Source: Mayamaea pseudoterrestris
Taxonomy: Eukaryota
Direction of reading: 5' to 3'
NCBI GenBank assembly: GCA_027923505.1
Contig: BROI01000032.1
Location: 1-64,000 of the forward strand
Length of the DNA stretch: 64,000 bases
A program made the position numbers and the translations under genes. The notes under the pieces are model-generated. The model was not told where the DNA came from and did no database searches. It worked only from the letters and a program-made list of their open reading frames with translations. Positions 11,732-42,812 of this stretch are shown piece after piece (position 1 is the first letter of the stretch; each line of letters opens with the position of its first letter).

Positions 11732-11746
11732 GGGTGGGTGGGTGGG

Positions 11747-11978
11747 ACAAACAAACAAACAAGCTGGCTAGACAACAGGGTTGGCAAGCAAGCAAGCAAG
11801 AGGAATGAGAGGCATCGGATGGGGATCGGCAACTTGGTCTGTGGTTGTCGGTCCTCCATTGATGTCGCATGTGACGTGTCCCGAACCATCGATGATGTGT
11901 ATCACTCAGAGTGTACTCATAAGGTATCTTATGAGTGTCCCCAAGGCAGTCTCCTCGAAGCATCCGCCCTGAGCCGGA
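11747..11978. repeat. Split direct repeat A2
   Basis: Matches 42592-42812 apart from 3 substitutions and an 11 bp insertion (tcgaagcatcc). Confidence 0.93.
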
Positions 11979-11989
11979 CAATCTGCACT

Positions 11990-12186
11990 TGTGCAGATTG
12001 CCCTCCGTCGCTCGGCTGCTTCTTTCCGCGGTGCACGGCCAAGGCCGGTCTAGCTGCCCAACAGGCGGCAGCGATGTCCATGTAGGTTGCGTATGCTATG
12101 TGACCCGGAAATCCGGGTCCCTGAGCAACCACGTCATCGATGATGACTGGCAGCGAGTCCTGTCTTGACAGGAGTCGCCTCAACCC
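11990..12186. repeat. Split direct repeat B1 (197 bp)
   Basis: Identical by eye to 11535-11731. Confidence 0.95.
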
Positions 12187-18575: not shown

Positions 18576-18580
18576 CAACT
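18576..18580. repeat. Left target-site duplication CAACT
   Basis: Same 5-mer at 41065-41069, directly outside the outer LTRs. Confidence 0.95.
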
Positions 18581-19123
18581 TGCTTGAGATCCAAGATGAA
18601 GGTCCGTACGGAAGTAGGGAGAAAAGACGGTTTAAACGCTAAAAGACTGGGGAAACTTTGAATCTATTGTTAGTAGATCCTCTAGAATGAGACGAAAGTG
18701 AAGCGGTCGATTTCGCATCCAAGAGTGGCTTCTCATTCATACGTATGTATATTGTCTACCGGTCGTGTCATTTTGTACTGGCCATCCCGTAGGCGGGATG
18801 GCTCTCGTCCGTCTACAGAATTGGCAGTATAGTCTTCACTGCTGGTAGTGTTTGCACGGCTTCGCTCTGTAGAGGCCCAACATTCGCTGTGTACGCCGGT
18901 TCCGGTATTCGATGTACCTGTGGTAGTCTTTCTACGGTTGTCAGTCGTGAATTCTTCGGGTACGGTGAAGTGTGTAGGGTTTGGGCCAGTGGCTGACTTT
19001 CTACTCTCGCCGTCGTAGGAGTGTGGTCGTGAACGGGATGTTCCGTGTCTTGGTGCCGCTGAGACCGTGTCGATGTCCTTTTCAATGTTGCTTTGTTCGT
19101 CGGCCAAAACGGGGATCCCAGCA
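18581..19123 (-). repeat. 3' LTR of copia unit 1 (543 bp)
   Basis: TGCTTGAGATCC...GGATCCCAGCA; four copies in the window. Confidence 0.97.
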
Positions 19124-22100
19124 CCCTTCCCTTGGAGAGCGATGGCTTCAGGCATTGAATCCATCTTGTAGTACTCATCCTCTCCAACTAGGATCCGTGC
19201 ATGGCGATTGAAGGTAGAAAGGTCCAAGTTCTTGGTGAAGATGTCGGCAGTGTTCTTCTTGGTTTCAATGTACTTGACAAGGAGGATGCCGTGTTCTTTG
19301 AGCTCTCGAGCGAAGTTGTGGCGTACGTCAACATGGCGTGTGCGCCCTCCTGTCTTCCAGCTGTTGATGATGTCGATTGCGCCGCTGTTGTCCATTTCCA
19401 GGACCATTGGCAGTTGGACTTTGAGGCCTATTGACTGAAGAATGGCATGTGTGTGAAGCATGTCTTGTATGACGTCGGTACCTGCGGACATTTCGGACTC
19501 AGTTACTGAAAGGGAGACATGTTTCTGTAGGCGGCAAACTTCGGCGACGGGAACGCCTTCAAGGTAGGTGATGCCACCGGAATGACTCTTGTGCTTGTCG
19601 GGATCCTTGGCGTAATCTGAATCGCTTCTGGCGCTGATGATAAAGACGTGGTTTGGGCCGGTATACTCGCGGTTTGGGAGGAACAGTCTGCCTCTCTTTG
19701 GTGTTGCACACATGTAGCGGATGGCTCGGTACATGGCTTTCTCGTGGGCTTCTTCTCCCGTCTTCATGGCTCGGCATAAGTCATTTATGGCGTAGAGTGT
19801 CTCTGGTCGAGACCATCGGGCGAGGTAAAGTAGTTTGCCTAGGCCTTGTCGAAGGGTCGTCTGCTTGTTGTTGCTTAGGGCGGAAGGATCGCCTTCTTTG
19901 ACGCATGGTAGCACCGTCCCGGGTTGAGCAGGAACGCATGCCTCTTGGCGTTTCGGCGGAGGGATTGTAAACTCGTCTTGTAAGCTTTGTAGGAGGACTG
20001 GTTGCGTCCATCGCATGTAGTTTTCGCCTCGTTCAATCTTGCAACCGATGTACTCGTCCATTGGTCCACCGTCTTCGCCGTCAAAGTGCTGTAGAAGTTG
20101 TTTCTTGGTGTCTTCAATCATGTCTGGAGGGCCGCTTAACAGGAGATCGTCGATGTGCGAGACGATGTGCATGTGGCGGTCGCCATCTTGTTTGTAAAAC
20201 AGGCAAGGGTCGGCAACGCTCCGTTCAAATCCTATTTGTCGAAGTGCTTTGACCAGTTGGTCCCAGAACGCTCGCGCAGCTTGTTTAGTTCCGTATAGCG
20301 TGCGCTTGAGTAGCCAAACGTGATTGGGTGGATAGTCGTCTTGGAAACCTTCAGGTATGTGCATGTAACACTCGTGGCCTTCGTCAAACGTGCCGTAGAG
20401 GAATGCTCCGCTTATATCGAAGATGTGTGGCTCGTATCCCATCATGATGGCAAGAGTTGTGACAATCTTGATGGACGTTGGCGATGCTACTGGAGATGAG
20501 ATCTTGTTGCTGTCGTAATGGATTCCGTCTTCTTGTTCGTAGCCTCTTGCTGTGATTCGTGCTTTGTATGTGCCGTTTGACTTCTTCTTGAGCACCCACT
20601 TGCTTGTCATGCACTTTGTTCGAGGTGGTATCATGCTGCGTGAAACGACTTGGAATGTGCCGTGCTTGATGAGGTTGTCCTTCTCTTTGCGAATTGCCTT
20701 GATCCATTCGGGACGCTCTGGACTGCCCATGGCTTGCTTGAACTTGATCGTATGCAACTCTTCTGTGTTGATGAATCCGCCTCCAATGCCTGCTCCAACG
20801 CACGCAAACTCTCCGAGTGTGGGAATGGGAGACGCGTCGTAGAAGATGCTTGCACTAGACGGCGTGCTGGGCATGTCGCGGAAGAAGTATTCAAAGGTGG
20901 AATTCGTGGGCTCGTTCGGTGGTTCGCTTGTCTCGTCGAGGTTTAAATGGATTTCTGCAGGGATCAAGTCGGCGCTATGGAAGCTTTGTTGATCTTCATG
21001 GTCATTTTCTTGTTGGTATGGCGAATCATGGACGGATGTATGTGTGTCGTCGAGAATCGTTGAAGAGGGAACGTGTAGGAGATCGGCCATGATGGCAAGT
21101 TGTTCTGGCGGTAGATCGATTTGCTGGTTTGTCGACTCGTCGCTTTCGTCTTGTGTCTCGGTGACTAGTATAGATGTTTTATCTTCATGGTCATCTGGGT
21201 TGAAACCCTTCCCGAGTTGAAGAGTCGGGCTGCAAACGTTGGAGACTCGAGTCGTGATCACTGTTTCGATAGACGCTTGAGGTGCGGCTGGTTGAGGTGC
21301 GGGACGTCCATTTGCTTGGGTGAGCTCTTCTTCATATTCATCGTCGTCTGCATTAATGTCCCACAGCTCGATTGCTTGACTGTCTCCTGCACTGCTATGG
21401 TCGTCGGCTCTTGGGACTAAGTCGGGTATGGAATCATTTAATGATACGGAGTCGTCGTCGCGCTCGTGTGATGGCTCGTAGGCAGCTTCGTAACGTTGAT
21501 CTTGTGTAGGCAAACAGAAACTATCTTCGTTGCCCCATAGTTCAGGAGCTTCGCTGTCACCTGCGCTGCTGTAGTCGTCATTTCGAGGTACCAGAGGAGG
21601 TATGGACCCGTTCGATGAGACTGATTCTTCGTCTTGCTGGTCGTCATATGGTCGGTGGTGGAATTCTTGCTCGTCAGACTCGCAGTACTTGTTATATTCT
21701 GATTCAGCTGATCGGTCACTGTCATAGCCGTTGTCGCATGCGTTGTATAGTGTTGTGCGATTGCCGAATCGTTCGTCGAGTGCGGCAAGTATGGCGGCGA
21801 ATGTTGCAGGATTGGTCGGATCGAATCGAGTTGGTGTTCTTGTTTCTCGCGTGGTGCGACGCAGGCCACCAGGATTTGATCGTGTGGAGCGTGTAGATGA
21901 TCTTGAGCTTTGCGATCCTCGTGAGTGATTTGATGAGAATCGAGCGATGTGTCTTTGAATTGCGTTTGCTTGGCGATCGGCGATTGTAGTATGCGCTCTT
22001 GGAGATTGAGGCGTATTGAGTATGTCTGTTCCTTCTTCTTGCGCGCTTGTTGGTGCATTCGCATTTGGGTGGTATATTGTAAGTGCAGTTGGATTGAAGG

Positions 22101-25100
22101 TGTCGGGCGCTGATTGGATTGAGTTTGTTGGTGAGGCTTCCGATGCTTCTGGAGTGTCATGGTCAGTCAGATCAATCAGCGAGGTAGATCGTGTCAGGAT
22201 GCGCTTTGTATGGAACGTTGGTTTCTTCTTGTTCTTGTCGTCTGGAGATTTCGCGGGTGGCGGCGGCAAATTCCCATGGTGATGCGGTGAGAAAAGACTG
22301 CTGTAGTTGCTGCTGCAGGAAATGACGTCAATGAGTGGTGTAGTGACGATTTCGTGACGCGGGGGCTTAGGTTGAAAGTACGGTCGGTGAAGAAATGTGA
22401 CGTCCTTGACGTCATGTACGCGATTGGTCTCGGGATTGAAGACGCGATAGCATCTGCTCGGGTGATTTTTGCTGTAGCCGACAAAGATGCCTTGGAATCC
22501 TTTTGGTGCTAGATGAGACTTTAATCCGGATATCACGACAGTGACTGCTTCGCCGTATGGATGTAGATTCTTGATGATGGGCGACTCGGTGCCGTAGAAG
22601 TGTTTGAATCGAGTTGCTAGAGTGCTCTTGTGCTCGACGATAGCAAGATTGTCCATGTCAGTTGAGTATTCGAAGGCAGATGGTGCCAAATGAAACCGAA
22701 TTGAAGGTGGAATGTTTTGAGCTGTAAATATGGCTCGCGTGCGATTAGTGAGCGTCGGGAATCCAATTTCGACAAGACTGTTTTGTTGCGGGGTGTCTCT
22801 CGCAGTCCATTCGATCTCGATCGGCAATTTCCAAGCGGAGCTCTTCATTGACTTGGCTAATGCTTGGTTCTCTCCGGCGTTGTCCATTCGAAGGTATTTG
22901 ACTGTAATGCCGCGTTGGATGAGATAGTAGAGCATCTGGCATGTCGGCTCAACGATTTCCCCTTTGGTGCGGTACATGGCGCTGTGCTTGTAGCCTGTCG
23001 CTTCGTCGACAATGAGTTGCCATTGCGGTTGTATGGAGGAGAATCCAAGTTCTGATTTGCTCTTCATGACTCTAAATGAAGAGAGGTCCATGTAAAGTCG
23101 CTCGCCTGGCTCTGTGGCTCGGATGCGCGGCGATATTTGAGGGACCGGTTGCTTCTTGGCCTTGCCTATTGCGCAGGCAACACACTTGTTCTTGGACGAT
23201 CCGTGTATTTCCCATCTAAAGTGCTTGGCAATTGCGAGTGTCATTTGGGGGCTTTGGTGTCCACACAGTTCGTGCATTTGTTTGTAGGAGAGACGGCGTG
23301 TCGGAAGCAAGTTGGCTGCAATCATGGCGAACTCGTTACGAGGCGCTTGAACTAATGGCATTGGAATGACTCGTCTCAAGTACATGCAGTAAAGATGACC
23401 TCGCTTGGTAGGAATCAGCAAGTCGAAGACGATGGAGTGTTGGTTTTCTTTCTCTAGCCAAATCTTCTTGTTGCCGCTGCGGAGGTTCCATCCTGTCGCT
23501 AAACGTTGAGTGATGCTGAACAGATTGAAGGCGCAGTCGGGCGCGTAAGCAACGTTGTTGAGGACTCCTTGGTAGAGAGGATTGCCAAATCGATCGCAGG
23601 CGTCGACGCGAAGCTTCGCCATGGTTTGAATGTCGGCGACTGTTTGATTTCCCATTGTGATGCCTTCATTTCGTATCTGACGGGCATCGAACAGGCCTTC
23701 TGGATGAGGTGTACAGTCGACGGTTGCTGCGGTATCGCCGATGAAGATTTCAGGATGCTTCAGGATATCCAAGTTGGTTGGACACGTAATGGATTCGTGG
23801 ATAGTTGCGAGGGCGAATTCGTTGTTGTTGTTGTTTCTTCGAACCGCGTAGGCATTGGCGCTTACGTTGTATCTCAATGCATTGAATGGATTTGGGCTTT
23901 CGTGTTGCAGTTGATTTGAATTGCGAGCTGGAGGCTGGTATCTGCGTGCGCGTTGCTCTGCTGCTTCGCGTGCGTCTCTTGCCTCGCGTTCTGCAAGGAG
24001 GTCTAGTAGTTCCTGTCGTTCTGCTTCTCTCTCGCTTTCTGGAAATTGATCGAGGTAGTTGAAAGTCGTTAAGTCTTTGCTGAATTCCAAGCCGACGTTG
24101 CGGAGGTCTTCTTCTAGTGTGCTGCGCGTTCGCAATGTTCCTTCGAGTGCTCGTCTTTTGACTTCCTTGGCAATTGCATGATCGATGACGACTTTTAAAC
24201 GTTCGTCAAACAGTGCTTCCTCGTCTTCTTCATTGATTTCTTCGAACCAGAAGATGAGATCCTTGAGGAAACGCCTTTGGCTGAAACGTTCAAGCATGCA
24301 CAGTCGTGCGGCGCTTGCAGGGTTTGTCTCGATGTCTTGCTCATCCTTCTTTATTTGTTGGATGGTGGTTTCGTAGCGCGCTCGAGAAACGACATGCTCA
24401 GGCGCTTGATTGCGGTGTTCCCAGGATTGAAGAAAAGCTTGATAGCCTTCATAGGTGAAGGAGTCTGATCCGTAACTTTGACTGCTTGGGTATGCATCTG
24501 AATCGTAAGTTGCGTCGTCTGAATTGGTTTCTTCGTCGCCAGGATTGCTCATGATGATTTCGACTCGCTCTGTATCCCAGACTCGAAGACCGGTGTATTG
24601 GTAGTAGCGGTCTCGCGTTGAGTCAATTGCTTCTTGATGCGTAAAGGCGTGTGGCATGGCTATGTGCTCGAGAAAGAACTCTTGTAGATCTGCAAACATC
24701 ACTTTTACGGCGTCTGACAGCTCGTATAGTGGAGGGTTGATGAACAGGACGCTTTGCAAGACGTGGAATGGCGGTAGATCACTCGAGTTGGCTTGTGGCG
24801 GAATGTTGTTTGGAATCCTTGGAGCAAAGGTTGGATACAAGTGCTCGACTTCTTTTAGCTCGTCTGCTGTGAGGAAGTCTTTGGGTAGCCAGTCTCCTCG
24901 CCATTGCGCAAAGCTTGTCGCTACGAGTTCTTCTACACTTTCTTCTTCTTTCAATTCAATTGGAGGACTTGTTGTTGGAGTTGAATCTTTGTCGGCGCTG
25001 CAAGTTGTGACGTTGTCGGTGCGCTCATGTGTGTCGCATTCGTTGGCGTTTGTGGTTGTTGGCTCAAGATTAGTGGCTTCAGTTGTGTCGCTGCTCGTTG

Positions 25101-27129
25101 TGACGTTATTGGTGCTTTGCGTAGCGTCGTAGACGTGGTAGGAGTCGTTGAGGTTGTTTGCTTGCTCTTCAATTGATGAGTGCACTTGTTGCTCTGATTT
25201 ACTTGGCTCGTCTTGTTTGTGGAATGGCAGACCCTTCCCGTCTTCTTGCTTCGTTTGCTCAAGTGTTTCAATGTTTTGAATTAAAGTGCTGAAGTGTCTC
25301 CGTTCTTGCTCGGTTGGAGTCTTGTTGTTGACAAACTCGTCTTCAAAGTCGCTTTCTTCTTCATCACTTGTGCTTGGGTCGCCGCATATGGATGCCCAAC
25401 TGCGTCCTTTGAGATTTGACGATGGAAGATTTGGCTTTGGCTTTGGTGACTCACTCGTTGTGGACAACTTTGTTAAAGGCACCAATTCGACGGCTTGCTT
25501 CTTGTTGGTGGAGCTTGACGTTGGTCTTGCGCGTTTCGTTCGAGTTGTTGGTGGTGCTGGAGGCTGCTCGATTGATGAATCGTCTTCCGATGAATAGTCT
25601 TTAATCTGATGTGGCTGTAGACCGCGCCAGTTGGTTTGTGGGTATAAAGGCGACGGTGTTGGAGCTGCAGGAGTGCGGGTAGGGAGTGCTGGATAAGTTT
25701 CATCAACTAAGTCGGCATGTATGAAGGCAAATTCGCTCCTTGAGTTTGTAGAAGGATAACGGCGGCTTGAAGAGGAACGTTGCGAAGAGGAACGATGCGA
25801 TCGCTGAGTCAACTGAAGGGCTTCGTGTACTGCTGCAAGTCCTTGTTCGAGTAGTAATGGCGCTTGACGAGGCACTTGTTCGCGCATGATGGTTCGCGGG
25901 TGAGGCTCTTGACGATGGTTTTGATGATCAAGTTGGCGCGGTTGCTCTTGTTGATCTCGGCGACGATAATCATTGTCTCTTGGTTGGTCTCTTGCGCGCT
26001 CGTTGTTGCGATTCTGTCGATAACGACGGTCTTCTTGCTGATCATCTTGTGGAAGACGACGATCTTGCTGTCGATTTGAATTGCGAGGACGCTCTCTTGG
26101 TCGTTCTAAACCACGCTCTTGTTGCTCTCGTGCTTCTTCATCTTCCAATTGACGACGAGCTTCGATTGACAAGCGAGTGTTCCATCCTCGAGGACGACGG
26201 TGGGCGTTTTCGACTCGTTCAAAGCAGTCGGCGCTTCGATGATACGGTTGATGGCAAAGGTAGCATTTGAATGATGGTGGATTTCGCGTGTTGTTATAGT
26301 TGGTTTGCGGGCGTTCATTGCGAGTTGGCGGCGCTTGATGCTGACGAGTGTTTTGTTGGCGTGAAGTTTCTTGTTGCGGCGGTTCTGGTTGTGCTGCATA
26401 TAGAACAATCTCGTTGACTCCTTGTATTAAAGCTTCTTCATCTTCTGCTGCGTAAATCGTTTGGTAGATAGTCGACACGACGCCCTCCATTTCGGTCTTG
26501 GTCAGGGCGCGTTGCTTGGTCTTTTGCTCTTGCGCTAAAGCGAGGCAGTATTGAGGCGGCAGCTTGTTCATGAGCGTAGCCATCAGGTCTTCTGCAAGAA
26601 GCGTTTGGTTGAACTTGATGGCTTGCGATTGCATGAGGTCGATGAGGTCTTGAGGGTTTGCTGTTGGTCGTTCGAGCTTGAGATTTTGAATGCTTCGTCG
26701 GTAAAGTGTTGGCGCCATGAACTTGTCTGGAGAAAACTTGATTTCCAATGCGTTGATAACCTTCCAAGCTTCGCCTCCTGGATACTCTGTTGATTCTGCT
26801 CCGACAAGATGGTCGTTCAACTCGGGGAATGGCGACAATGCGATGGAAAGCATTTGCATGAGCGTTTCATTCTGCTTGCGTTCCGCTTGTTTGTTTCGAA
26901 TGATTTGGATTTCGTCTGCTGTTGCGTTAGCTGCGGGATCAGTAATGACTTCATTTTGAGTAGCTGGTAAGTGCTCGGGTCGACTGCCTCTTATAGGACG
27001 GCGGCAGCCTGCAATTCTTGCATGATTCTTGAACTGGTTGAACCATGATGGAAAGGCTTCGATGGTGTTGGTTATCTTTGGCGTTTTGTAGAGCGCATTC
27101 ATAGTGATGTCTTCTTGTTGGTCGGTCAT
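18733..27129 (-). CDS. Copia Gag-Pol polyprotein (2798 aa), unit 1
   Basis: Zinc knuckle CYLCHQPYHRSADC; protease IGDTAAT; integrase HELCGH..CVAC, YMD, RMDNAGE, PQQNSLVE, GIFVGYS; RT KARITARGYEQ, FDISGAFL, LYGTKQAAR, HIDD; RNase H DSDYA, TESE, DNSGA, ADIFTK. Confidence 0.97.
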   Translation of the reverse strand: MTDQQEDITMNALYKTPKITNTIEAFPSWFNQFKNHARIAGCRRPIRGSRPEHLPATQNEVITDPAANATADEIQIIRNKQAERKQNETLMQMLSIALSPFPELNDHLVGAESTEYPGGEAWKVINALEIKFSPDKFMAPTLYRRSIQNLKLERPTANPQDLIDLMQSQAIKFNQTLLAEDLMATLMNKLPPQYCLALAQEQKTKQRALTKTEMEGVVSTIYQTIYAAEDEEALIQGVNEIVLYAAQPEPPQQETSRQQNTRQHQAPPTRNERPQTNYNNTRNPPSFKCYLCHQPYHRSADCFERVENAHRRPRGWNTRLSIEARRQLEDEEAREQQERGLERPRERPRNSNRQQDRRLPQDDQQEDRRYRQNRNNERARDQPRDNDYRRRDQQEQPRQLDHQNHRQEPHPRTIMREQVPRQAPLLLEQGLAAVHEALQLTQRSHRSSSQRSSSSRRYPSTNSRSEFAFIHADLVDETYPALPTRTPAAPTPSPLYPQTNWRGLQPHQIKDYSSEDDSSIEQPPAPPTTRTKRARPTSSSTNKKQAVELVPLTKLSTTSESPKPKPNLPSSNLKGRSWASICGDPSTSDEEESDFEDEFVNNKTPTEQERRHFSTLIQNIETLEQTKQEDGKGLPFHKQDEPSKSEQQVHSSIEEQANNLNDSYHVYDATQSTNNVTTSSDTTEATNLEPTTTNANECDTHERTDNVTTCSADKDSTPTTSPPIELKEEESVEELVATSFAQWRGDWLPKDFLTADELKEVEHLYPTFAPRIPNNIPPQANSSDLPPFHVLQSVLFINPPLYELSDAVKVMFADLQEFFLEHIAMPHAFTHQEAIDSTRDRYYQYTGLRVWDTERVEIIMSNPGDEETNSDDATYDSDAYPSSQSYGSDSFTYEGYQAFLQSWEHRNQAPEHVVSRARYETTIQQIKKDEQDIETNPASAARLCMLERFSQRRFLKDLIFWFEEINEEDEEALFDERLKVVIDHAIAKEVKRRALEGTLRTRSTLEEDLRNVGLEFSKDLTTFNYLDQFPESEREAERQELLDLLAEREARDAREAAEQRARRYQPPARNSNQLQHESPNPFNALRYNVSANAYAVRRNNNNNEFALATIHESITCPTNLDILKHPEIFIGDTAATVDCTPHPEGLFDARQIRNEGITMGNQTVADIQTMAKLRVDACDRFGNPLYQGVLNNVAYAPDCAFNLFSITQRLATGWNLRSGNKKIWLEKENQHSIVFDLLIPTKRGHLYCMYLRRVIPMPLVQAPRNEFAMIAANLLPTRRLSYKQMHELCGHQSPQMTLAIAKHFRWEIHGSSKNKCVACAIGKAKKQPVPQISPRIRATEPGERLYMDLSSFRVMKSKSELGFSSIQPQWQLIVDEATGYKHSAMYRTKGEIVEPTCQMLYYLIQRGITVKYLRMDNAGENQALAKSMKSSAWKLPIEIEWTARDTPQQNSLVEIGFPTLTNRTRAIFTAQNIPPSIRFHLAPSAFEYSTDMDNLAIVEHKSTLATRFKHFYGTESPIIKNLHPYGEAVTVVISGLKSHLAPKGFQGIFVGYSKNHPSRCYRVFNPETNRVHDVKDVTFLHRPYFQPKPPRHEIVTTPLIDVISCSSNYSSLFSPHHHGNLPPPPAKSPDDKNKKKPTFHTKRILTRSTSLIDLTDHDTPEASEASPTNSIQSAPDTFNPTALTIYHPNANAPTSAQEEGTDILNTPQSPRAHTTIADRQANAIQRHIARFSSNHSRGSQSSRSSTRSTRSNPGGLRRTTRETRTPTRFDPTNPATFAAILAALDERFGNRTTLYNACDNGYDSDRSAESEYNKYCESDEQEFHHRPYDDQQDEESVSSNGSIPPLVPRNDDYSSAGDSEAPELWGNEDSFCLPTQDQRYEAAYEPSHERDDDSVSLNDSIPDLVPRADDHSSAGDSQAIELWDINADDDEYEEELTQANGRPAPQPAAPQASIETVITTRVSNVCSPTLQLGKGFNPDDHEDKTSILVTETQDESDESTNQQIDLPPEQLAIMADLLHVPSSTILDDTHTSVHDSPYQQENDHEDQQSFHSADLIPAEIHLNLDETSEPPNEPTNSTFEYFFRDMPSTPSSASIFYDASPIPTLGEFACVGAGIGGGFINTEELHTIKFKQAMGSPERPEWIKAIRKEKDNLIKHGTFQVVSRSMIPPRTKCMTSKWVLKKKSNGTYKARITARGYEQEDGIHYDSNKISSPVASPTSIKIVTTLAIMMGYEPHIFDISGAFLYGTFDEGHECYMHIPEGFQDDYPPNHVWLLKRTLYGTKQAARAFWDQLVKALRQIGFERSVADPCLFYKQDGDRHMHIVSHIDDLLLSGPPDMIEDTKKQLLQHFDGEDGGPMDEYIGCKIERGENYMRWTQPVLLQSLQDEFTIPPPKRQEACVPAQPGTVLPCVKEGDPSALSNNKQTTLRQGLGKLLYLARWSRPETLYAINDLCRAMKTGEEAHEKAMYRAIRYMCATPKRGRLFLPNREYTGPNHVFIISARSDSDYAKDPDKHKSHSGGITYLEGVPVAEVCRLQKHVSLSVTESEMSAGTDVIQDMLHTHAILQSIGLKVQLPMVLEMDNSGAIDIINSWKTGGRTRHVDVRHNFARELKEHGILLVKYIETKKNTADIFTKNLDLSTFNRHARILVGEDEYYKMDSMPEAIALQGKGAGIPVLADEQSNIEKDIDTVSAAPRHGTSRSRPHSYDGESRKSATGPNPTHFTVPEEFTTDNRRKTTTGTSNTGTGVHSECWASTERSRANTTSSEDYTANSVDGREPSRLRDGQYKMTRPVDNIHTYE
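19124..19133 (-). other. Polypurine tract (AAGGGAAGGG) abutting the 3' LTR; second copy at 30366-30375
   Basis: cccttccctt on the plus strand directly next to the LTR boundary. Confidence 0.85.
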
Positions 27130-27137
27130 GGTTGCGA

Positions 27138-29141
27138 TTAGAATGTGTAGTAAAAGTTTTGGCTATTGGTCGGACGTTGATAGCTAACGTTGTTGTCGGC
27201 GAATGGAGATTGACGGTTTGGGGTAGCTAAACGTTGCTGACGTGGCCAATTGAGTTGCTGATGTGACGGAGTTTGAAAACGTGAACGAGCGTGGAACTGC
27301 TGAGCGTGTTGATCGCGACGATGGACACGTTGTTGATTTGTCACTTGTCGATTTCGTTGAGCTTGTAAGTGCAGCTGTCGTTGTTGTTGATTAAGAAGAT
27401 GATTTAAACGAGTTACTTGAGCTTGAAGACTGTTTATATCGCGTGTATGATGAGTTGTAGTGTTGCGCGTGTCGTTGATGCGAGGCTGGACTCGAAGGGT
27501 TGGATTGGAGGTTCGGTTTTGCTGTCGGGTTGGCGTGACGATTCGATTCGCTTGTTGCTGTCTTAAACGCTGCTGGTAAGGACGATTGCTGTTCGTTTCG
27601 TTGCGTCGTTGATTGCGTCTTTGACTAACAGTGATTCGATTGCGTTGAAGATTGATCGAAGCTTGTTGCGTTGTTGATGCGCGCTCTTGACTTGCTTGTC
27701 GCTGTCCGTTTCGTTGTTGAAAGAGTGCTTGACGACGGTCTTCGACGCTTTGAACTGCTGCGATGCGAGGTGCTTCTTGGTAAGTGCTTGAAACGTTCTG
27801 TGAGCGAAGAGTTTGTTGCGATGGTCTCGTGTCTTGGCGATGCGCTTGTCTAACTGGCGCTTGATTTGCTTCTTGTTGGCGAATTGAATTGATTGATCGG
27901 CAAGTATGCGTCGTGCTTGTTGGCGATGTCTCTAATTGCTCGTTGACTGGCGATGAGTTGCTGCTTGGCGAGGGTACGTGTGTTTGCGTATTGGCGATGC
28001 ACACAGAACAAGCGCACGTCGTCTCTGTGTTTATATCTGGTACTTCAGAAAGTCTTTGCAAGTCTTGACGTCTGTTTTCTTCGTCCTTTTGAAGCAGGAA
28101 ACGAGTCTTCTTGAGGAAGTAAAGAGTTACTGGATGCGATAGGTCTTTTGCTTCGAATTCGTCTCGCTCGTTGCGCAAAGTGTCTTCTAGTAGAAGAATC
28201 TCCTTCTCTTCGGGCGTGAAAGGATTGTTCGGTCGGCAAAGATCAAGGCTCTTGTAAAAGTCTGCTCGCTTTTCGTCAAGGAAGATTAATGACTTTGGAG
28301 AAAAGATGAAGGCTTTGAGAAAGGGTACGTTGCTGTCGATGTAACTTGTTTCGACGCCTGATTGTGCGGTTGACTCGGCAACTTTTGCTAATCCTTCTTC
28401 TTTGAATTCTTCCGCAATGTGACTGTAAAACACTTCGTTGTTGGCAAGGTCTTTAAACTGATTGAAGCGCTGCTCACAAGCTTGTTCCGGGTCGATTGGC
28501 TTTGATGAAGGCGGCGGTAGAATGCCTCGAAAGATCCAGGCGAAACGCTTGTCTTCTTCGTCCCAAGTCCAAGGGGTTGGAGGAGAGACGCGCGGGTCGT
28601 AACGATACCAGCCGTATCGAACGTTCGGGTGGTTGTAAACTGCTTTCTCTTCGTCAGTGGCGGGTCGTCCAGTTAGATGCCAGTCTTCGGGGTTGTTTGG
28701 TGAAAGACGACGAAGGCTGTCGCGTGGGTTGTACTCGGTTGGAAGTCGCTCTCGTTCTTGATTGCTTGCAATTTGATCGGCGGCGGTAAGTCGGATTACT
28801 GGGCGGCCTTCTGGAGCGACCGATTGAGGACTTGAAGGGTTGAACTCGTGTAAAGTAATGTTGGTGAAGAGGACGACGACTTGTAGAAGGCGTCGTGAAG
28901 AATTAAAGACTTGGCGGCTTGTGTTGAAGCGGCGAAGGAAACTGTAAAGAAGGCGCGTGACTTGTGGAGTGAGAGGCGACTTGAAAAGAGTGCTCGGCAG
29001 ACTAGGTAAAGTAGTTCTGCTCAACTGATGGAGACTTGAAATCTGCTCGACGACGTTGGCCTTGATCAAACGCTTGATCCGACTCGAGGTAAACTGAAAG
29101 ATAAAGGCAAAAGGGTCGCTTGTAGGCTTGCTCTTGCTCAC
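27138..29141 (-). CDS. Extra upstream ORF0 of the copia element (667 codons, no AUG; non-AUG start unknown), unit 1
   Basis: 2004 nt open frame ending 8 nt before the gag ATG; no Met codon. Aromatic/charged central region, CxCxxC, and a Q/R/N-rich basic C-terminal part. Confidence 0.7.
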   Translation of the reverse strand: MSKSKPTSDPFAFIFQFTSSRIKRLIKANVVEQISSLHQLSRTTLPSLPSTLFKSPLTPQVTRLLYSFLRRFNTSRQVFNSSRRLLQVVVLFTNITLHEFNPSSPQSVAPEGRPVIRLTAADQIASNQERERLPTEYNPRDSLRRLSPNNPEDWHLTGRPATDEEKAVYNHPNVRYGWYRYDPRVSPPTPWTWDEEDKRFAWIFRGILPPPSSKPIDPEQACEQRFNQFKDLANNEVFYSHIAEEFKEEGLAKVAESTAQSGVETSYIDSNVPFLKAFIFSPKSLIFLDEKRADFYKSLDLCRPNNPFTPEEKEILLLEDTLRNERDEFEAKDLSHPVTLYFLKKTRFLLQKDEENRRQDLQRLSEVPDINTETTCACSVCIANTQTHVPSPSSNSSPVNEQLETSPTSTTHTCRSINSIRQQEANQAPVRQAHRQDTRPSQQTLRSQNVSSTYQEAPRIAAVQSVEDRRQALFQQRNGQRQASQERASTTQQASINLQRNRITVSQRRNQRRNETNSNRPYQQRLRQQQANRIVTPTRQQNRTSNPTLRVQPRINDTRNTTTHHTRDINSLQAQVTRLNHLLNQQQRQLHLQAQRNRQVTNQQRVHRRDQHAQQFHARSRFQTPSHQQLNWPRQQRLATPNRQSPFADNNVSYQRPTNSQNFYYTF

Positions 29142-29279
29142 TCAATACTCCGCTTGTTGCTGCAGAGCTTTGGAAATTCGAGGTTGACAGAAAGGGCTTG
29201 AAGAAATCCGCGTCCGGTTTTGTTCAATGCTTTGGAAACTTGGTAAAAAGATCTTGGTTCAATCGGCAAGTAATTACTT

Positions 29280-29822
29280 TGCTTGAGATCCAAGATGAAG
29301 GTCCGTACGGAAGTAGGGAGAAAAGACGGTTTAAACGCTAAAAGACTGGGGAAACTTTGAATCTATTGTTAGTAGATCCTCTAGAATGAGACGAAAGTGA
29401 AGCGGTCGATTTCGCATCCAAGAGTGGCTTCTCATTCATACGTATGTATATTGTCTACCGGTCGTGTCATTTTGTACTGGCCATCCCGTAGGCGGGATGG
29501 CTCTCGTCCGTCTACAGAATTGGCAGTATAGTCTTCACTGCTGGTAGTGTTTGCACGGCTTCGCTCTGTAGAGGCCCAACATTCGCTGTGTACGCCGGTT
29601 CCGGTATTCGATGTACCTGTGGTAGTCTTTCTACGGTTGTCAGTCGTGAATTCTTCGGGTACGGTGAAGTGTGTAGGGTTTGGGCCAGTGGCTGACTTTC
29701 TACTCTCGCCATCGTAGGAGTGTGGTCGTGAACGGGATGTTCCGTGTCTTGGTGCCGCTGAGACCGTGTCGATGTCCTTTTCAATGTTGCTTTGTTCGTC
29801 GGCCAAAACGGGGATCCCAGCA
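29280..29822 (-). repeat. 5' LTR of copia unit 1
   Basis: 543 bp; differs from the 3' LTR at one site I could see (A at 29711 versus G at 19012). Confidence 0.97.
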
Positions 29823-30365
29823 TGCTTGAGATCCAAGATGAAGGTCCGTACGGAAGTAGGGAGAAAAGACGGTTTAAACGCTAAAAGACTGGGGAAACTT
29901 TGAATCTATTGTTAGTAGATCCTCTAGAATGAGACGAAAGTGAAGCGGTCGATTTCGCATCCAAGAGTGGCTTCTCATTCATACGTATGTATATTGTCTA
30001 CCGGTCGTGTCATTTTGTACTGGCCATCCCGTAGGCGGGATGGCTCTCGTCCGTCTACAGAATTGGCAGTATAGTCTTCACTGCTGGTAGTGTTTGCACG
30101 GCTTCGCTCTGTAGAGGCCCAACATTCGCTGTGTACGCCGGTTCCGGTATTCGATGTACCTGTGGTAGTCTTTCTACGGTTGTCAGTCGTGAATTCTTCG
30201 GGTACGGTGAAGTGTGTAGGGTTTGGGCCAGTGGCTGACTTTCTACTCTCGCCGTCGTAGGAGTGTGGTCGTGAACGGGATGTTCCGTGTCTTGGTGCCG
30301 CTGAGACCGTGTCGATGTCCTTTTCAATGTTGCTTTGTTCGTCGGCCAAAACGGGGATCCCAGCA
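29823..30365 (-). repeat. 3' LTR of copia unit 2
   Basis: Begins immediately after the previous LTR (..cccagCA|TGcttgag..). Confidence 0.97.
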
Positions 30366-33300
30366 CCCTTCCCTTGGAGAGCGATGGCTTCAGGCATTGA
30401 ATCCATCTTGTAGTACTCATCCTCTCCAACTAGGATCCGTGCATGGCGATTGAAGGTAGAAAGGTCCAAGTTCTTGGTGAAGATGTCGGCAGTGTTCTTC
30501 TTGGTTTCAATGTACTTGACAAGGAGGATGCCGTGTTCTTTGAGCTCTCGAGCGAAGTTGTGGCGTACGTCAACATGGCGTGTGCGCCCTCCTGTCTTCC
30601 AGCTGTTGATGATGTCGATTGCGCCGCTGTTGTCCATTTCCAGGACCATTGGCAGTTGGACTTTGAGGCCTATTGACTGAAGAATGGCATGTGTGTGAAG
30701 CATGTCTTGTATGACGTCGGTACCTGCGGACATTTCGGACTCAGTTACTGAAAGGGAGACATGTTTCTGTAGGCGGCAAACTTCGGCGACGGGAACGCCT
30801 TCAAGGTAGGTGATGCCACCGGAATGACTCTTGTGCTTGTCGGGATCCTTGGCGTAATCTGAATCGCTTCTGGCGCTGATGATAAAGACGTGGTTTGGGC
30901 CGGTATACTCGCGGTTTGGGAGGAACAGTCTGCCTCTCTTTGGTGTTGCACACATGTAGCGGATGGCTCGGTACATGGCTTTCTCGTGGGCTTCTTCTCC
31001 CGTCTTCATGGCTCGGCATAAGTCATTTATGGCGTAGAGTGTCTCTGGTCGAGACCATCGGGCGAGGTAAAGTAGTTTGCCTAGGCCTTGTCGAAGGGTC
31101 GTCTGCTTGTTGTTGCTTAGGGCGGAAGGATCGCCTTCTTTGACGCATGGTAGCACCGTCCCGGGTTGAGCAGGAACGCATGCCTCTTGGCGTTTCGGCG
31201 GAGGGATTGTAAACTCGTCTTGTAAGCTTTGTAGGAGGACTGGTTGCGTCCATCGCATGTAGTTTTCGCCTCGTTCAATCTTGCAACCGATGTACTCGTC
31301 CATTGGTCCACCGTCTTCGCCGTCAAAGTGCTGTAGAAGTTGTTTCTTGGTGTCTTCAATCATGTCTGGAGGGCCGCTTAACAGGAGATCGTCGATGTGC
31401 GAGACGATGTGCATGTGGCGGTCGCCATCTTGTTTGTAAAACAGGCAAGGGTCGGCAACGCTCCGTTCAAATCCTATTTGTCGAAGTGCTTTGACCAGTT
31501 GGTCCCAGAACGCTCGCGCAGCTTGTTTAGTTCCGTATAGCGTGCGCTTGAGTAGCCAAACGTGATTGGGTGGATAGTCGTCTTGGAAACCTTCAGGTAT
31601 GTGCATGTAACACTCGTGGCCTTCGTCAAACGTGCCGTAGAGGAATGCTCCGCTTATATCGAAGATGTGTGGCTCGTATCCCATCATGATGGCAAGAGTT
31701 GTGACAATCTTGATGGACGTTGGCGATGCTACTGGAGATGAGATCTTGTTGCTGTCGTAATGGATTCCGTCTTCTTGTTCGTAGCCTCTTGCTGTGATTC
31801 GTGCTTTGTATGTGCCGTTTGACTTCTTCTTGAGCACCCACTTGCTTGTCATGCACTTTGTTCGAGGTGGTATCATGCTGCGTGAAACGACTTGGAATGT
31901 GCCGTGCTTGATGAGGTTGTCCTTCTCTTTGCGAATTGCCTTGATCCATTCGGGACGCTCTGGACTGCCCATGGCTTGCTTGAACTTGATCGTATGCAAC
32001 TCTTCTGTGTTGATGAATCCGCCTCCAATGCCTGCTCCAACGCACGCAAACTCTCCGAGTGTGGGAATGGGAGACGCGTCGTAGAAGATGCTTGCACTAG
32101 ACGGCGTGCTGGGCATGTCGCGGAAGAAGTATTCAAAGGTGGAATTCGTGGGCTCGTTCGGTGGTTCGCTTGTCTCGTCGAGGTTTAAATGGATTTCTGC
32201 AGGGATCAAGTCGGCGCTATGGAAGCTTTGTTGATCTTCATGGTCATTTTCTTGTTGGTATGGCGAATCATGGACGGATGTATGTGTGTCGTCGAGAATC
32301 GTTGAAGAGGGAACGTGTAGGAGATCGGCCATGATGGCAAGTTGTTCTGGCGGTAGATCGATTTGCTGGTTTGTCGACTCGTCGCTTTCGTCTTGTGTCT
32401 CGGTGACTAGTATAGATGTTTTATCTTCATGGTCATCTGGGTTGAAACCCTTCCCGAGTTGAAGAGTCGGGCTGCAAACGTTGGAGACTCGAGTCGTGAT
32501 CACTGTTTCGATAGACGCTTGAGGTGCGGCTGGTTGAGGTGCGGGACGTCCATTTGCTTGGGTGAGCTCTTCTTCATATTCATCGTCGTCTGCATTAATG
32601 TCCCACAGCTCGATTGCTTGACTGTCTCCTGCACTGCTATGGTCGTCGGCTCTTGGGACTAAGTCGGGTATGGAATCATTTAATGATACGGAGTCGTCGT
32701 CGCGCTCGTGTGATGGCTCGTAGGCAGCTTCGTAACGTTGATCTTGTGTAGGCAAACAGAAACTATCTTCGTTGCCCCATAGTTCAGGAGCTTCGCTGTC
32801 ACCTGCGCTGCTGTAGTCGTCATTTCGAGGTACCAGAGGAGGTATGGACCCGTTCGATGAGACTGATTCTTCGTCTTGCTGGTCGTCATATGGTCGGTGG
32901 TGGAATTCTTGCTCGTCAGACTCGCAGTACTTGTTATATTCTGATTCAGCTGATCGGTCACTGTCATAGCCGTTGTCGCATGCGTTGTATAGTGTTGTGC
33001 GATTGCCGAATCGTTCGTCGAGTGCGGCAAGTATGGCGGCGAATGTTGCAGGATTGGTCGGATCGAATCGAGTTGGTGTTCTTGTTTCTCGCGTGGTGCG
33101 ACGCAGGCCACCAGGATTTGATCGTGTGGAGCGTGTAGATGATCTTGAGCTTTGCGATCCTCGTGAGTGATTTGATGAGAATCGAGCGATGTGTCTTTGA
33201 ATTGCGTTTGCTTGGCGATCGGCGATTGTAGTATGCGCTCTTGGAGATTGAGGCGTATTGAGTATGTCTGTTCCTTCTTCTTGCGCGCTTGTTGGTGCAT

Positions 33301-36300
33301 TCGCATTTGGGTGGTATATTGTAAGTGCAGTTGGATTGAAGGTGTCGGGCGCTGATTGGATTGAGTTTGTTGGTGAGGCTTCCGATGCTTCTGGAGTGTC
33401 ATGGTCAGTCAGATCAATCAGCGAGGTAGATCGTGTCAGGATGCGCTTTGTATGGAACGTTGGTTTCTTCTTGTTCTTGTCGTCTGGAGATTTCGCGGGT
33501 GGCGGCGGCAAATTCCCATGGTGATGCGGTGAGAAAAGACTGCTGTAGTTGCTGCTGCAGGAAATGACGTCAATGAGTGGTGTAGTGACGATTTCGTGAC
33601 GCGGGGGCTTAGGTTGAAAGTACGGTCGGTGAAGAAATGTGACGTCCTTGACGTCATGTACGCGATTGGTCTCGGGATTGAAGACGCGATAGCATCTGCT
33701 CGGGTGATTTTTGCTGTAGCCGACAAAGATGCCTTGGAATCCTTTTGGTGCTAGATGAGACTTTAATCCGGATATCACGACAGTGACTGCTTCGCCGTAT
33801 GGATGTAGATTCTTGATGATGGGCGACTCGGTGCCGTAGAAGTGTTTGAATCGAGTTGCTAGAGTGCTCTTGTGCTCGACGATAGCAAGATTGTCCATGT
33901 CAGTTGAGTATTCGAAGGCAGATGGTGCCAAATGAAACCGAATTGAAGGTGGAATGTTTTGAGCTGTAAATATGGCTCGCGTGCGATTAGTGAGCGTCGG
34001 GAATCCAATTTCGACAAGACTGTTTTGTTGCGGGGTGTCTCTCGCAGTCCATTCGATCTCGATCGGCAATTTCCAAGCGGAGCTCTTCATTGACTTGGCT
34101 AATGCTTGGTTCTCTCCGGCGTTGTCCATTCGAAGGTATTTGACTGTAATGCCGCGTTGGATGAGATAGTAGAGCATCTGGCATGTCGGCTCAACGATTT
34201 CCCCTTTGGTGCGGTACATGGCGCTGTGCTTGTAGCCTGTCGCTTCGTCGACAATGAGTTGCCATTGCGGTTGTATGGAGGAGAATCCAAGTTCTGATTT
34301 GCTCTTCATGACTCTAAATGAAGAGAGGTCCATGTAAAGTCGCTCGCCTGGCTCTGTGGCTCGGATGCGCGGCGATATTTGAGGGACCGGTTGCTTCTTG
34401 GCCTTGCCTATTGCGCAGGCAACACACTTGTTCTTGGACGATCCGTGTATTTCCCATCTAAAGTGCTTGGCAATTGCGAGTGTCATTTGGGGGCTTTGGT
34501 GTCCACACAGTTCGTGCATTTGTTTGTAGGAGAGACGGCGTGTCGGAAGCAAGTTGGCTGCAATCATGGCGAACTCGTTACGAGGCGCTTGAACTAATGG
34601 CATTGGAATGACTCGTCTCAAGTACATGCAGTAAAGATGACCTCGCTTGGTAGGAATCAGCAAGTCGAAGACGATGGAGTGTTGGTTTTCTTTCTCTAGC
34701 CAAATCTTCTTGTTGCCGCTGCGGAGGTTCCATCCTGTCGCTAAACGTTGAGTGATGCTGAACAGATTGAAGGCGCAGTCGGGCGCGTAAGCAACGTTGT
34801 TGAGGACTCCTTGGTAGAGAGGATTGCCAAATCGATCGCAGGCGTCGACGCGAAGCTTCGCCATGGTTTGAATGTCGGCGACTGTTTGATTTCCCATTGT
34901 GATGCCTTCATTTCGTATCTGACGGGCATCGAACAGGCCTTCTGGATGAGGTGTACAGTCGACGGTTGCTGCGGTATCGCCGATGAAGATTTCAGGATGC
35001 TTCAGGATATCCAAGTTGGTTGGACACGTAATGGATTCGTGGATAGTTGCGAGGGCGAATTCGTTGTTGTTGTTGTTTCTTCGAACCGCGTAGGCATTGG
35101 CGCTTACGTTGTATCTCAATGCATTGAATGGATTTGGGCTTTCGTGTTGCAGTTGATTTGAATTGCGAGCTGGAGGCTGGTATCTGCGTGCGCGTTGCTC
35201 TGCTGCTTCGCGTGCGTCTCTTGCCTCGCGTTCTGCAAGGAGGTCTAGTAGTTCCTGTCGTTCTGCTTCTCTCTCGCTTTCTGGAAATTGATCGAGGTAG
35301 TTGAAAGTCGTTAAGTCTTTGCTGAATTCCAAGCCGACGTTGCGGAGGTCTTCTTCTAGTGTGCTGCGCGTTCGCAATGTTCCTTCGAGTGCTCGTCTTT
35401 TGACTTCCTTGGCAATTGCATGATCGATGACGACTTTTAAACGTTCGTCAAACAGTGCTTCCTCGTCTTCTTCATTGATTTCTTCGAACCAGAAGATGAG
35501 ATCCTTGAGGAAACGCCTTTGGCTGAAACGTTCAAGCATGCACAGTCGTGCGGCGCTTGCAGGGTTTGTCTCGATGTCTTGCTCATCCTTCTTTATTTGT
35601 TGGATGGTGGTTTCGTAGCGCGCTCGAGAAACGACATGCTCAGGCGCTTGATTGCGGTGTTCCCAGGATTGAAGAAAAGCTTGATAGCCTTCATAGGTGA
35701 AGGAGTCTGATCCGTAACTTTGACTGCTTGGGTATGCATCTGAATCGTAAGTTGCGTCGTCTGAATTGGTTTCTTCGTCGCCAGGATTGCTCATGATGAT
35801 TTCGACTCGCTCTGTATCCCAGACTCGAAGACCGGTGTATTGGTAGTAGCGGTCTCGCGTTGAGTCAATTGCTTCTTGATGCGTAAAGGCGTGTGGCATG
35901 GCTATGTGCTCGAGAAAGAACTCTTGTAGATCTGCAAACATCACTTTTACGGCGTCTGACAGCTCGTATAGTGGAGGGTTGATGAACAGGACGCTTTGCA
36001 AGACGTGGAATGGCGGTAGATCACTCGAGTTGGCTTGTGGCGGAATGTTGTTTGGAATCCTTGGAGCAAAGGTTGGATACAAGTGCTCGACTTCTTTTAG
36101 CTCGTCTGCTGTGAGGAAGTCTTTGGGTAGCCAGTCTCCTCGCCATTGCGCAAAGCTTGTCGCTACGAGTTCTTCTACACTTTCTTCTTCTTTCAATTCA
36201 ATTGGAGGACTTGTTGTTGGAGTTGAATCTTTGTCGGCGCTGCAAGTTGTGACGTTGTCGGTGCGCTCATGTGTGTCGCATTCGTTGGCGTTTGTGGTTG

Positions 36301-38371: not shown

Positions 38372-38379
38372 GGTTGCGA

Positions 38380-40383: not shown

Positions 40384-40521
40384 TCAATACTCCGCTTGTT
40401 GCTGCAGAGCTTTGGAAATTCGAGGTTGACAGAAAGGGCTTGAAGAAATCCGCGTCCGGTTTTGTTCAATGCTTTGGAAACTTGGTAAAAAGATCTTGGT
40501 TCAATCGGCAAGTAATTACTT

Positions 40522-41064
40522 TGCTTGAGATCCAAGATGAAGGTCCGTACGGAAGTAGGGAGAAAAGACGGTTTAAACGCTAAAAGACTGGGGAAACTTT
40601 GAATCTATTGTTAGTAGATCCTCTAGAATGAGACGAAAGTGAAGCGGTCGATTTCGCATCCAAGAGTGGCTTCTCATTCATACGTATGTATATTGTCTAC
40701 CGGTCGTGTCATTTTGTACTGGCCATCCCGTAGGCGGGATGGCTCTCGTCCGTCTACAGAATTGGCAGTATAGTCTTCACTGCTGGTAGTGTTTGCACGG
40801 CTTCGCTCTGTAGAGGCCCAACATTCGCTGTGTACGCCGGTTCCGGTATTCGATGTACCTGTGGTAGTCTTTCTACGGTTGTCAGTCGTGAATTCTTCGG
40901 GTACGGTGAAGTGTGTAGGGTTTGGGCCAGTGGCTGACTTTCTACTCTCGCCATCGTAGGAGTGTGGTCGTGAACGGGATGTTCCGTGTCTTGGTGCCGC
41001 TGAGACCGTGTCGATGTCCTTTTCAATGTTGCTTTGTTCGTCGGCCAAAACGGGGATCCCAGCA
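40522..41064 (-). repeat. 5' LTR of copia unit 2
   Basis: 543 bp, followed on the plus strand by TSD CAACT. Confidence 0.97.
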
Positions 41065-42591: not shown

Positions 42592-42812
42592 ACAAACAAA
42601 CAAACAAGCTGGCTAGACAACAGGGTTGGCAAGCAAGCAAGCAAGAGGAATGAGAGGCATCGGATGGGGATCGGCAACTCGGTCTGTGGTTGTCGGTCCT
42701 CCATTGATGCCGCATCTGACGTGTCCCGAACCATCGATGATGTGTATCACTCAGAGTGTACTCATAAGGTATCTTATGAGTGTCCCCAAGGCAGTCTCCG
42801 CCCTGAGCCGGA
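42592..42812. repeat. Split direct repeat A1 (5' terminus of the YR element)
   Basis: Near-identical to 11747-11978. Confidence 0.93.

Follow-up and report, generated by a model that had tools for sequence, protein, structure and literature searches.

A strand-specific AUG-free leader with a methionine-less open reading frame upstream of gag-pol in a Ty1/copia element of Mayamaea pseudoterrestris

A 64,000-nt stretch of Mayamaea pseudoterrestris DNA (GenBank assembly GCA_027923505.1, contig BROI01000032.1, positions 1 to 64,000; hereafter the window) carries two tandem copies of a Ty1/copia long terminal repeat (LTR) retrotransposon. In this element, the region leading from the last part of the 5′ LTR to gag contains no AUG in any sense frame over 2285 nt, and most of it is occupied by an open reading frame (ORF) without methionine, here named ORF0. 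The absence of AUG is far beyond chance. The explanation that we consider the best, and hold with modest confidence, is that the element carries an accessory ORF0 ahead of gag whose translation would begin at a non-AUG codon, by leaky scanning of an RNA that also carries gag-pol. Positions refer to the window, and the element lies on the minus strand. The features on which the argument depends are as follows.

27130..29414, minus strand: AUG-free tract, 2285 nt, zero ATG in all sense frames
38372..40656, minus strand: AUG-free tract of copy 2, with its ORF0 copy at 38380-40383
29415..29417, minus strand: final ATG ahead of the purge, at LTR position 406, bounding the AUG-free tract on its upstream side
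27138..29141, minus strand: ORF0, open for 667 codons between stops (2004 nt with its stop counted), no Met
27127..27129, minus strand: gag-pol start codon, first ATG past the LTR, caaccATGa with A at −3; the ORF0 stop lies 8 nt upstream

Results

The leader is purged of AUG on the sense strand

A first-pass annotation of the window had claimed that no sense AUG occurs between 27130 and 29414, and this was confirmed exactly. The plus-strand CATs starting at 27127 and 29415 are neighbours, 2288 apart, and the equivalent pair of copy 2 starts at 38369 and 40657; the runner-up CAT gap in the window is 484. About 35 AUGs had been expected at 1/64, a figure that was somewhat high, as base composition gives 26.7 and a first-order Markov model 8.3, with the conclusion unaffected. 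Dinucleotide-preserving shuffles of the tract (n = 1000) contained 8.4 ATGs on average and at least 1, with none of the 1000 at zero. Similar results were obtained by shuffling the codons of ORF0 (mean 11.2 ATGs, 0/2000 at zero) and by recoding its protein with the codon usage of gag-pol (mean 11.3 ATGs, 0/2000 at zero). ATG was the sole trinucleotide missing from the tract, the next rarest being GGG with 1 occurrence against 1.8 expected. The gag-pol ORF, which is similar to the leader in composition, holds 123 ATGs in 8397 nt.

On the opposite strand of the same 2285 nt, 29 ATGs (CAT in the sense direction) were counted against none on the sense strand, indicating that the effect is strand-specific. 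The purge extends beyond ORF0 itself: the 273 nt preceding ORF0 have 0 ATGs against 3.5 expected. In the 5′ LTR, sense ATGs were found at positions 111, 241, 339, 353, 384, 388 and 406, all within the first 408 nt, and none in the final 135 nt.

Out-of-frame ATGs are avoided through synonymous codons, the dipeptides that could form an ATG being retained. Among NAY codons (Asn, Asp, His, Tyr) followed by a G-starting codon, 0/22 ended in T compared with 36/85 elsewhere (Fisher p = 6e-5), and among codons preceding TGN, 0/12 ended in A compared with 201/654 elsewhere (p = 0.02). Both biases were absent from gag-pol, which served as the control (p = 0.61 and 0.58, respectively). The leader has 281 trinucleotides one substitution short of ATG, 55 of them ACG, in which the change to ATG would fall at a CpG, so that 281 of 6855 possible substitutions (4.1%) would make an ATG, indicating that the AUG-free state needs active maintenance. 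Near-cognate codons were not depleted, with 13 CUG, 55 ACG, 59 AUC and others present. From these patterns, the purge was very probably selected to permit scanning.

ORF0 has the character of a coding sequence

The Met-less open frame of 2004 nt described in the first-pass annotation was recovered at 29141..27138 with 667 codons, and 8 nt separate its TAA stop from the gag ATG. Over the ORF0 span, the ORF0 frame has 0 internal stops; the two remaining sense frames have 17 and 13, and the antisense frames between 32 and 45. In the dinucleotide shuffles, the longest open frame averaged 178 codons and reached a maximum of 463, against the 667 of ORF0. Codon-usage log-likelihood with gag-pol as the training set gave +136 bits for the ORF0 frame versus −42 and −89 for the other sense frames; training on six host ORFs of the window gave +61 versus −47 and −101. 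In windows of 40 codons, the coding signal was steadily positive from about element position 800 (window position ~29020). On these statistics, ORF0 is very probably a real gene.

The ORF0 product would have a basic N-terminal stretch, an acidic core at residues 95-400 (isoelectric point (pI) 5.1) and a basic tail rich in Q, R and N at residues 401-667 (pI 12); the tail suggests nucleic-acid binding. ORF0 showed no similarity to the gag-pol of its own element (best E = 4.6), and no match to the relative P0006. One protein, P0003, was the sole HMMER match to the ORF0 core in 1.84 billion representatives. It has many tandem repeats of ~110 residues, and the match was rejected as spurious, being a weak 29%-identical match summed over 9 repeats.

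gag-pol begins at the conventional position

The gag-pol ORF is listed below.

18733..27129, minus strand: gag-pol ORF, 2799 codons, with Gag carrying a CCHC knuckle, protease (PR), integrase (IN), reverse transcriptase (RT) and RNase H (RH)

The open frame of gag-pol extends over 27162..18733 and its earliest ATG is that at 27129, whose favourable context, caaccATGa with A at −3, was found as the first-pass annotation had given it. The N-terminus of gag-pol (first 330 residues from ATG 27129) was collinear with the Gag of the relative P0006 (query 15-323, subject 11-322, E = 2e-15), indicating that ATG 27129 is the conventional gag start and that everything upstream is added. ORF0 thus appears to be an added gene, since gag-pol begins where the polyproteins of its relatives begin.

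Pfam domains identified in gag-pol were Pol_BBD (1141-1221), SH3_retrovirus, the C-terminal domain of integrase (1527-1592), and RVT_2 (2170-2397, E = 4e-42), and their order, with IN ahead of RT, is the copia order. A zinc knuckle, C-x2-C-x4-H-x4-C, was visible in the translation; no Pfam gag family scored above threshold for the N-terminus. At 2799 codons, gag-pol is nearly twice as long as the ~1450-1520 residues of its RT relatives. Two stretches, one of about 800 residues from Gag to protease and one of about 570 from integrase to RT, had no Pfam match and were largely of low complexity (rich in S, T, D, E and Q). Gag and RT-RH, each used as a single query against viral contigs, gave no match, nor did the gag region against proteins of 1544-4916 residues. 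The gag-pol protein taken from its ATG was absent from a collection of 15 billion proteins on exact look-up; neighbouring host genes were present there.

Candidate start sites and the transcript start

Three in-frame near-cognate codons were listed as candidate starts of ORF0, together with a TATA-like motif in the LTR.

28998..29000, minus strand: candidate ORF0 start CUG, in frame, codon 48, A at −3
28956..28958, minus strand: candidate ORF0 start ACG, in frame, codon 62, G at −3
28857..28859, minus strand: candidate ORF0 start AUU, in frame, codon 95, A at −3, accaacATTa
29443..29450, minus strand: TATA-like TATACATA, with the last LTR ATG 33 nt downstream

The onset of the coding signal coincides with these CUG, ACG and AUU codons, and a further in-frame near-cognate with a purine at −3, AUC 28796, lies near it. 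The first-pass annotation had proposed either ATT 28859 or GTG 29141 as the start. The former stands as a candidate, with CUG 29000 and ACG 28958 at least as good; the latter is a poor candidate, having T at −3 and preceding the coding signal.

The position of the TATA-like motif suggests that transcription starts at about 29425-29410. The purge sets in 33 nt past this motif and 15 nt past the pol stop in the LTR, an arrangement that would leave R-U5 free of AUGs and the end of pol encoded in U3. Initiator-like motifs, which the first-pass annotation had noted at 29400-29384, were located as TCACTT at 29400-29395 and TCATTC at 29389-29384.

The pol frame reads ~390 nt into the LTR (18733-19123; also 29432-29822) and stops at LTR positions 389-391, 15 nt ahead of the last LTR ATG. 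Most of U3 therefore also encodes the C-terminal tail of the polyprotein.

A model of leaky scanning through ORF0

In the proposed mechanism, a full-length RNA, which we take to be unspliced, would probably begin within the final ~135 nt of the LTR, and all AUGs in all frames have been lost over the ~2.25 kb from there to the gag start. Cap-loaded 40S subunits would scan across the entire ORF0 and initiate at gag, the first AUG, with its A at −3. A minority of the scanning ribosomes would initiate ORF0 at an in-frame near-cognate codon, CUG 29000, ACG 28958 or AUU 28859, and the product would be a Met-free protein of 570-620 residues made at a low fixed ratio to Gag-Pol.

Internal AUGs are ignored by elongating ribosomes, and only scanning 43S complexes respond to them. 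Since elongating ribosomes are blind to AUGs and the purge covers all three frames, the pattern is read as the signature of scanning through ORF0 to gag. The sense leader RNA folded at −23 kcal/mol per 150 nt, compared with a range of −39 to −44 in host genes and −39 in the antisense of the leader, and such weak structure of the sense RNA would favour long-range scanning. Every prediction of the leaky-scanning reading in the first-pass annotation that could be checked in the sequence held; the transcript start, the unspliced state of the RNA, the use of a non-AUG start and conservation across copies are what we infer.

Relatives and other copies

The nearest RT-RH relatives were 40-48% identical and belong to ordinary polyproteins of ~1450-1520 residues; one named RT relative among the matches, P0121, is from the diatom Skeletonema (41% identity). 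An alignment-based scan recovered 79 metagenome loci at 35-48% identity. Eleven loci have a polyprotein ORF that is closed on its 5′ side and 1400 codons or longer. In these, the first ATG is preceded by an ATG-free run of 52 to 324 nt, two of these runs being shortened by the contig start. Over the 341 kb of related loci, the longest sense ATG-free run was 617 nt. A scripted AUG count on the element and on related copia loci, a check that the first-pass annotation had put forward for related diatom copia leaders, thus returned 0 in 2285 nt here and ATG-free leaders of no more than 324 nt in the relatives. These short runs indicate that the arrangement is lineage-specific.

The element family was present in public sequencing runs of several organisms. 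A stretch that includes the leader was compared with contigs from these runs, and 40 of the 541 differences were listed. Contigs of runs X1 and X2 filled all 30 bins of the compared stretch, in identity classes from >99% to <90%; run X7 had no contig over leader positions 26978-29119 and run X4 left some bins empty, gaps that are uninformative. Among the differences listed, ORF0 had one in-frame AAG insertion. In gag-pol, the indels listed comprised two that keep the frame (a 9-nt deletion, a TCG insertion), a 1-nt deletion compensated two bases further on by insertion of a T, and three that shift the frame (insertion of AA, and deletions of 25 nt and 1 nt). The copy comparison is too thin to settle the conservation of ORF0.

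Contigs of runs X1 and X4 track the element from the LTR to 28881 and then enter unrelated sequence. This breakpoint might mark a truncated copy or an insertion, or else a chimeric relative with the same LTR and the first part of the leader.

Anatomy and classification of the element

The remaining features of the element are as follows.

18581..29822, minus strand: copia element copy 1, 11,242 bp, with 5′ LTR, ORF0 leader, gag-pol and 3′ LTR (from self-BLAST, LTR and copy comparison, and Pfam)
29823..41064, minus strand: copia element copy 2, abutting copy 1 head to tail (from self-BLAST and copy comparison)
29280..29822, minus strand: 5′ LTR of copy 1, 543 bp, TG...CA
18581..19123, minus strand: 3′ LTR of copy 1 (from self-BLAST and copy comparison)
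19124..19133, minus strand: polypurine tract AAGGGAAGGG, adjoining the 3′ LTR
18576..18580, no strand: CAACT, half of a 5-bp target-site duplication, the other half at 41065-41069

The element is a Ty1/copia (Pseudoviridae) LTR retrotransposon, with an RT of the RVT_2 type, integrase before RT, TG...CA LTRs, a polypurine tract and a target-site duplication. The LTRs of both units (18581-19123, 29280-29822, 29823-30365 and 40522-41064) are 543 bp each, starting with TG and ending with CA. The 5′ and 3′ LTRs differ by 1 nt, and the identical single-base difference is found in both units. Copy 2 differs from copy 1 at 1 of 11,242 positions, window position 28822, in ORF0 codon 107 (Ser/Leu). The window contains tRNA-Pro as its only tRNA gene, and an Rfam scan of 18500-30400 returned nothing at the gathering threshold.

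The two complete elements meet LTR to LTR (CA/TG at 29822/29823) with zero intervening nucleotides, and one CAACT target-site duplication brackets the entire two-element block (18576-41069). The shared LTR difference, the direct LTR-LTR junction and the single CAACT duplication indicate that the whole element including both LTRs was duplicated in tandem or integrated as a dimer, unless the pair is an assembly artefact. This tandem pair differs from the usual tandem in which an LTR is shared.

Neighbouring features of the window

Three long ORFs (473, 1012 and 691 codons; 12466-18638, minus strand) adjoin the copia pair. By eye they look like another retroelement, containing RT/RNase H-like and recombinase-like stretches. 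Repeats of 208 bp with 98.6-99% identity flank the mobile-element block (11524-12186 and 42592-42799) and may be the ends of a larger composite insertion. A tandem array occupies 6.3 kb at 48094-54411, with a unit of ~345 bp and copies ~87-92% identical. At 1943-3127 on the minus strand, a ferredoxin-NADP reductase-like ORF begins MRMLLFFILCTATSAF/VVQP, which we presume to resemble the motif at which, in algae with complex red plastids, the signal peptide of plastid-targeted proteins is cleaved. An exact look-up located this protein in NCBI.

Discussion

Points that weigh against translation of ORF0 by leaky scanning

Several observations count against the explanation favoured here. For scanning over 2.25 kb with many near-cognate codons on the way, no mRNA precedent was found in the literature. 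The near-identical copies 1 and 2 amount to one observation, and the case for ORF0 as a protein is built on the statistics of a single sequence. Among the differences listed in the sequencing-run comparison, 10 were leader substitutions, of which 5 were synonymous and 5 non-synonymous in ORF0, a weak silent excess; these 10 created 0 ATGs, where only ~0.4 would be expected. A 1-nt deletion in ORF0 was also present in a minority contig.

Homology searches with ORF0 were negative throughout. A word-indexed search of 5.8 billion proteins with the ORF0 core returned nothing among lengths 366-1168; a Pfam scan returned nothing at E ≤ 0.01 (best DUF6769, E = 0.41); the ESM Atlas gave no usable match; and tblastn-confirmed scans of metagenome, viral and prokaryote genome contigs yielded no ORF0 relatives. 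A single-sequence AlphaFold2 model of residues 95-400 had a mean predicted local distance difference test (pLDDT) score of 34 and is not confident. Following the 5′ LTR (AAGTAATTACTTGCC...), no TGG-type primer-binding site was recognised on reading.

Alternative explanations

The alternative that fares best, although we consider it unlikely, is an AUG-free leader that is not translated, in which ORF0 would be the relic of a captured gene or a frame left open by low TA and TG. The observed/expected ratios of TA and TG are indeed 0.48 and 0.50, lowering stop density, and dinucleotide shuffles of the leader produce open frames of up to 463 codons. ORF0 also comes without homologue, domain or confident fold, as this explanation would have it. 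Low TA and TG do not, however, account for the length of ORF0, which none of the 1000 shuffles attained, or for the restriction of openness to one frame, the other sense frames holding 17 and 13 stops. Codon usage, moreover, favours the ORF0 frame by ~180-225 bits with gag-pol training and by ~110-160 bits with host training, and a functionless 2 kb would be costly for an element that has to be reverse-transcribed and packaged.

Less probable still is the use of separate RNAs. ORF0 would acquire its AUG either by splicing or from a start that lies further upstream, in the LTR, and gag-pol would be translated from an RNA from which the leader has been spliced. Some copia elements set their Gag:Pol ratio by splicing, which lends this explanation support. 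The LTR ATG 29417 (position 406) is in the ORF0 frame, though stops intervene, and a donor-like AAA/GTAATT is found at about 29278-29273, directly after the LTR. Against these stand the lack of any evident acceptor with a pyrimidine tract ahead of gag and the fact that splicing would remove the need for a purge in three frames over 2.3 kb, leaving the main observation unexplained. No contig joints were found in the leader, which says little as the sequencing runs were not recorded as RNA.

We regard as improbable a coupling of the two frames, either by termination-reinitiation after ORF0 or by a −1 frameshift within a 25-nt overlap that would give an ORF0-Gag-Pol fusion. The geometry would allow it: the ORF0 stop and the gag start are 8 nt apart, and the gag-pol frame, −1 with respect to ORF0, contains no stop over the 25 nt that lead up to the ORF0 stop. 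According to the part of PMC5902531 consulted, termination-reinitiation occurs in caliciviruses and in non-LTR retrotransposons. The same part states that reinitiation after an ORF of 600 codons normally requires a dedicated signal or factor (PMC5902531), which speaks against it here. Neither route requires the removal of AUGs from within ORF0, a non-AUG start of ORF0 would still be required, and gag-pol output would be capped by ORF0 initiation. For the frameshift, the overlap was inspected for an X XXY YYZ slippery heptamer in the ORF0 frame; there is none, and this route was rejected.

A compositional or mutational artefact (hypermutation or low complexity) with no selection on AUG can practically be dismissed: the sense strand has 17.6% G with a GG observed/expected of 0.38, and the second half of ORF0 is of low complexity and rich in Q, R and N, but 0/1000 dinucleotide shuffles reached zero, ATG is the sole missing trinucleotide, ATA (the G-to-A product of ATG) is not enriched (10 vs 13.6 expected), the rest of the element has 123 ATGs at similar composition, and the leader still contains 281 near-ATG trinucleotides including 55 ACG.

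Implications of the proposed leaky scanning through ORF0

If translation of ORF0 and gag-pol by leaky scanning is true, LTR retrotransposons can gain genes upstream of gag by AUG removal alone, with no frameshifting, splicing or internal ribosome entry site. Among the leaky-scanning tracts that we found for eukaryotic mRNAs the leader would be the longest, and among LTR retrotransposons it would be the first example; it would set a new practical limit of ~2.3 kb for productive 43S scanning, and ORF0 would be a natural long Met-free protein with a non-AUG start. The orphan ORF0 protein raises the new question of whether it has a role in the life cycle of the element or against host silencing. 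ORFs like ORF0 are never annotated by gene finders that require ATG; in the similarity searches of 5.8 billion proteins and of 1.84 billion representatives, ORF0 itself was not returned either. Scanning genomes for strand-specific ATG-free runs could reveal further cases.

Comparison with known systems

Among LTR retrotransposons, an AUG-free upstream ORF was not found in the literature, as judged by titles and abstract openings. Polycistronic RNAs of retroelements translated by leaky scanning are already known; for the copia family, to judge from the same literature, no report was found.

Diatom Ty1/copia elements of the CoDi type share with the present element the Ty1/copia affiliation, TG/CA LTRs and a CCHC Gag. 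They measure 5182-8062 bp in the section of PMC2806351 consulted, compared with 11,242 bp here. The methods of that study (Maumus et al. 2009) mention that an 'ORF1' was looked for ahead of the polyprotein ORF (PMC2806351).

The rice Ty3/gypsy elements Retrosat2, RIRE3, RIRE8 and FRetro3, which exceed 12 kb, have a lineage-specific ORF0 between the 5′ LTR and gag-pol that evolves faster than gag-pol, as described in the consulted portion of PMC3485330. The likeness lies in a large element with an extra ORF0 upstream of gag-pol whose function is unassigned. Unlike these elements, the one described here has the copia domain order, and its ORF0 is without similarity to any protein searched. That portion of PMC3485330 is silent on how the rice ORF0 is translated and reports no purge of AUG.

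Outside mobile elements, the bicistronic transcripts of green algae and of Drosophila (stoned, Snapin) offer a parallel: ORF 2 is preceded by fewer start codons than expected, and AUGs are scarce in the upstream ORFs, according to the passages of PMC11291117 consulted. An AUG-poor upstream ORF is common to both situations. In those passages, however, the upstream ORFs are short and have an AUG in weak context (PMC11291117), whereas ORF0 is AUG-less, 2 kb long and located in a mobile element.

A close parallel in arrangement is provided by the pararetroviruses. On the pregenomic RNA of rice tungro bacilliform virus (RTBV), leaky scanning proceeds across 900 nt kept AUG-free, and ORF I starts at AUU, used by ~10% of ribosomes; badnaviruses are similar in the leaky scanning of their upstream ORFs (both from the part of PMC5902531 consulted). 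The AUG-free distance here, 2285 nt, is 2.5 times that of RTBV as given there. There are two accessory ORFs in these viruses versus one here, with no sequence similarity between them, and the structured shunt leader with short ORFs of RTBV is absent before the tract here. The RTBV mechanism has been shown experimentally, and the present one is proposed from the sequence. The element does not belong to the Caulimoviridae, as it has LTRs, an integrase and RVT_2. What the systems share, as far as that part of PMC5902531 describes them, is reverse transcription, one or more accessory ORFs placed before the polyprotein on a full-length RNA, clearance of AUGs, and ORFs that closely abut. If the mechanism proposed here is true, it would represent convergence with badnaviruses and RTBV among reverse-transcribing elements. 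Rather tentatively, we suggest that a Ty1/copia element may have independently evolved the pararetrovirus-style production of two proteins from one capped RNA, a Met-free accessory protein being made while scanning continues to Gag-Pol.

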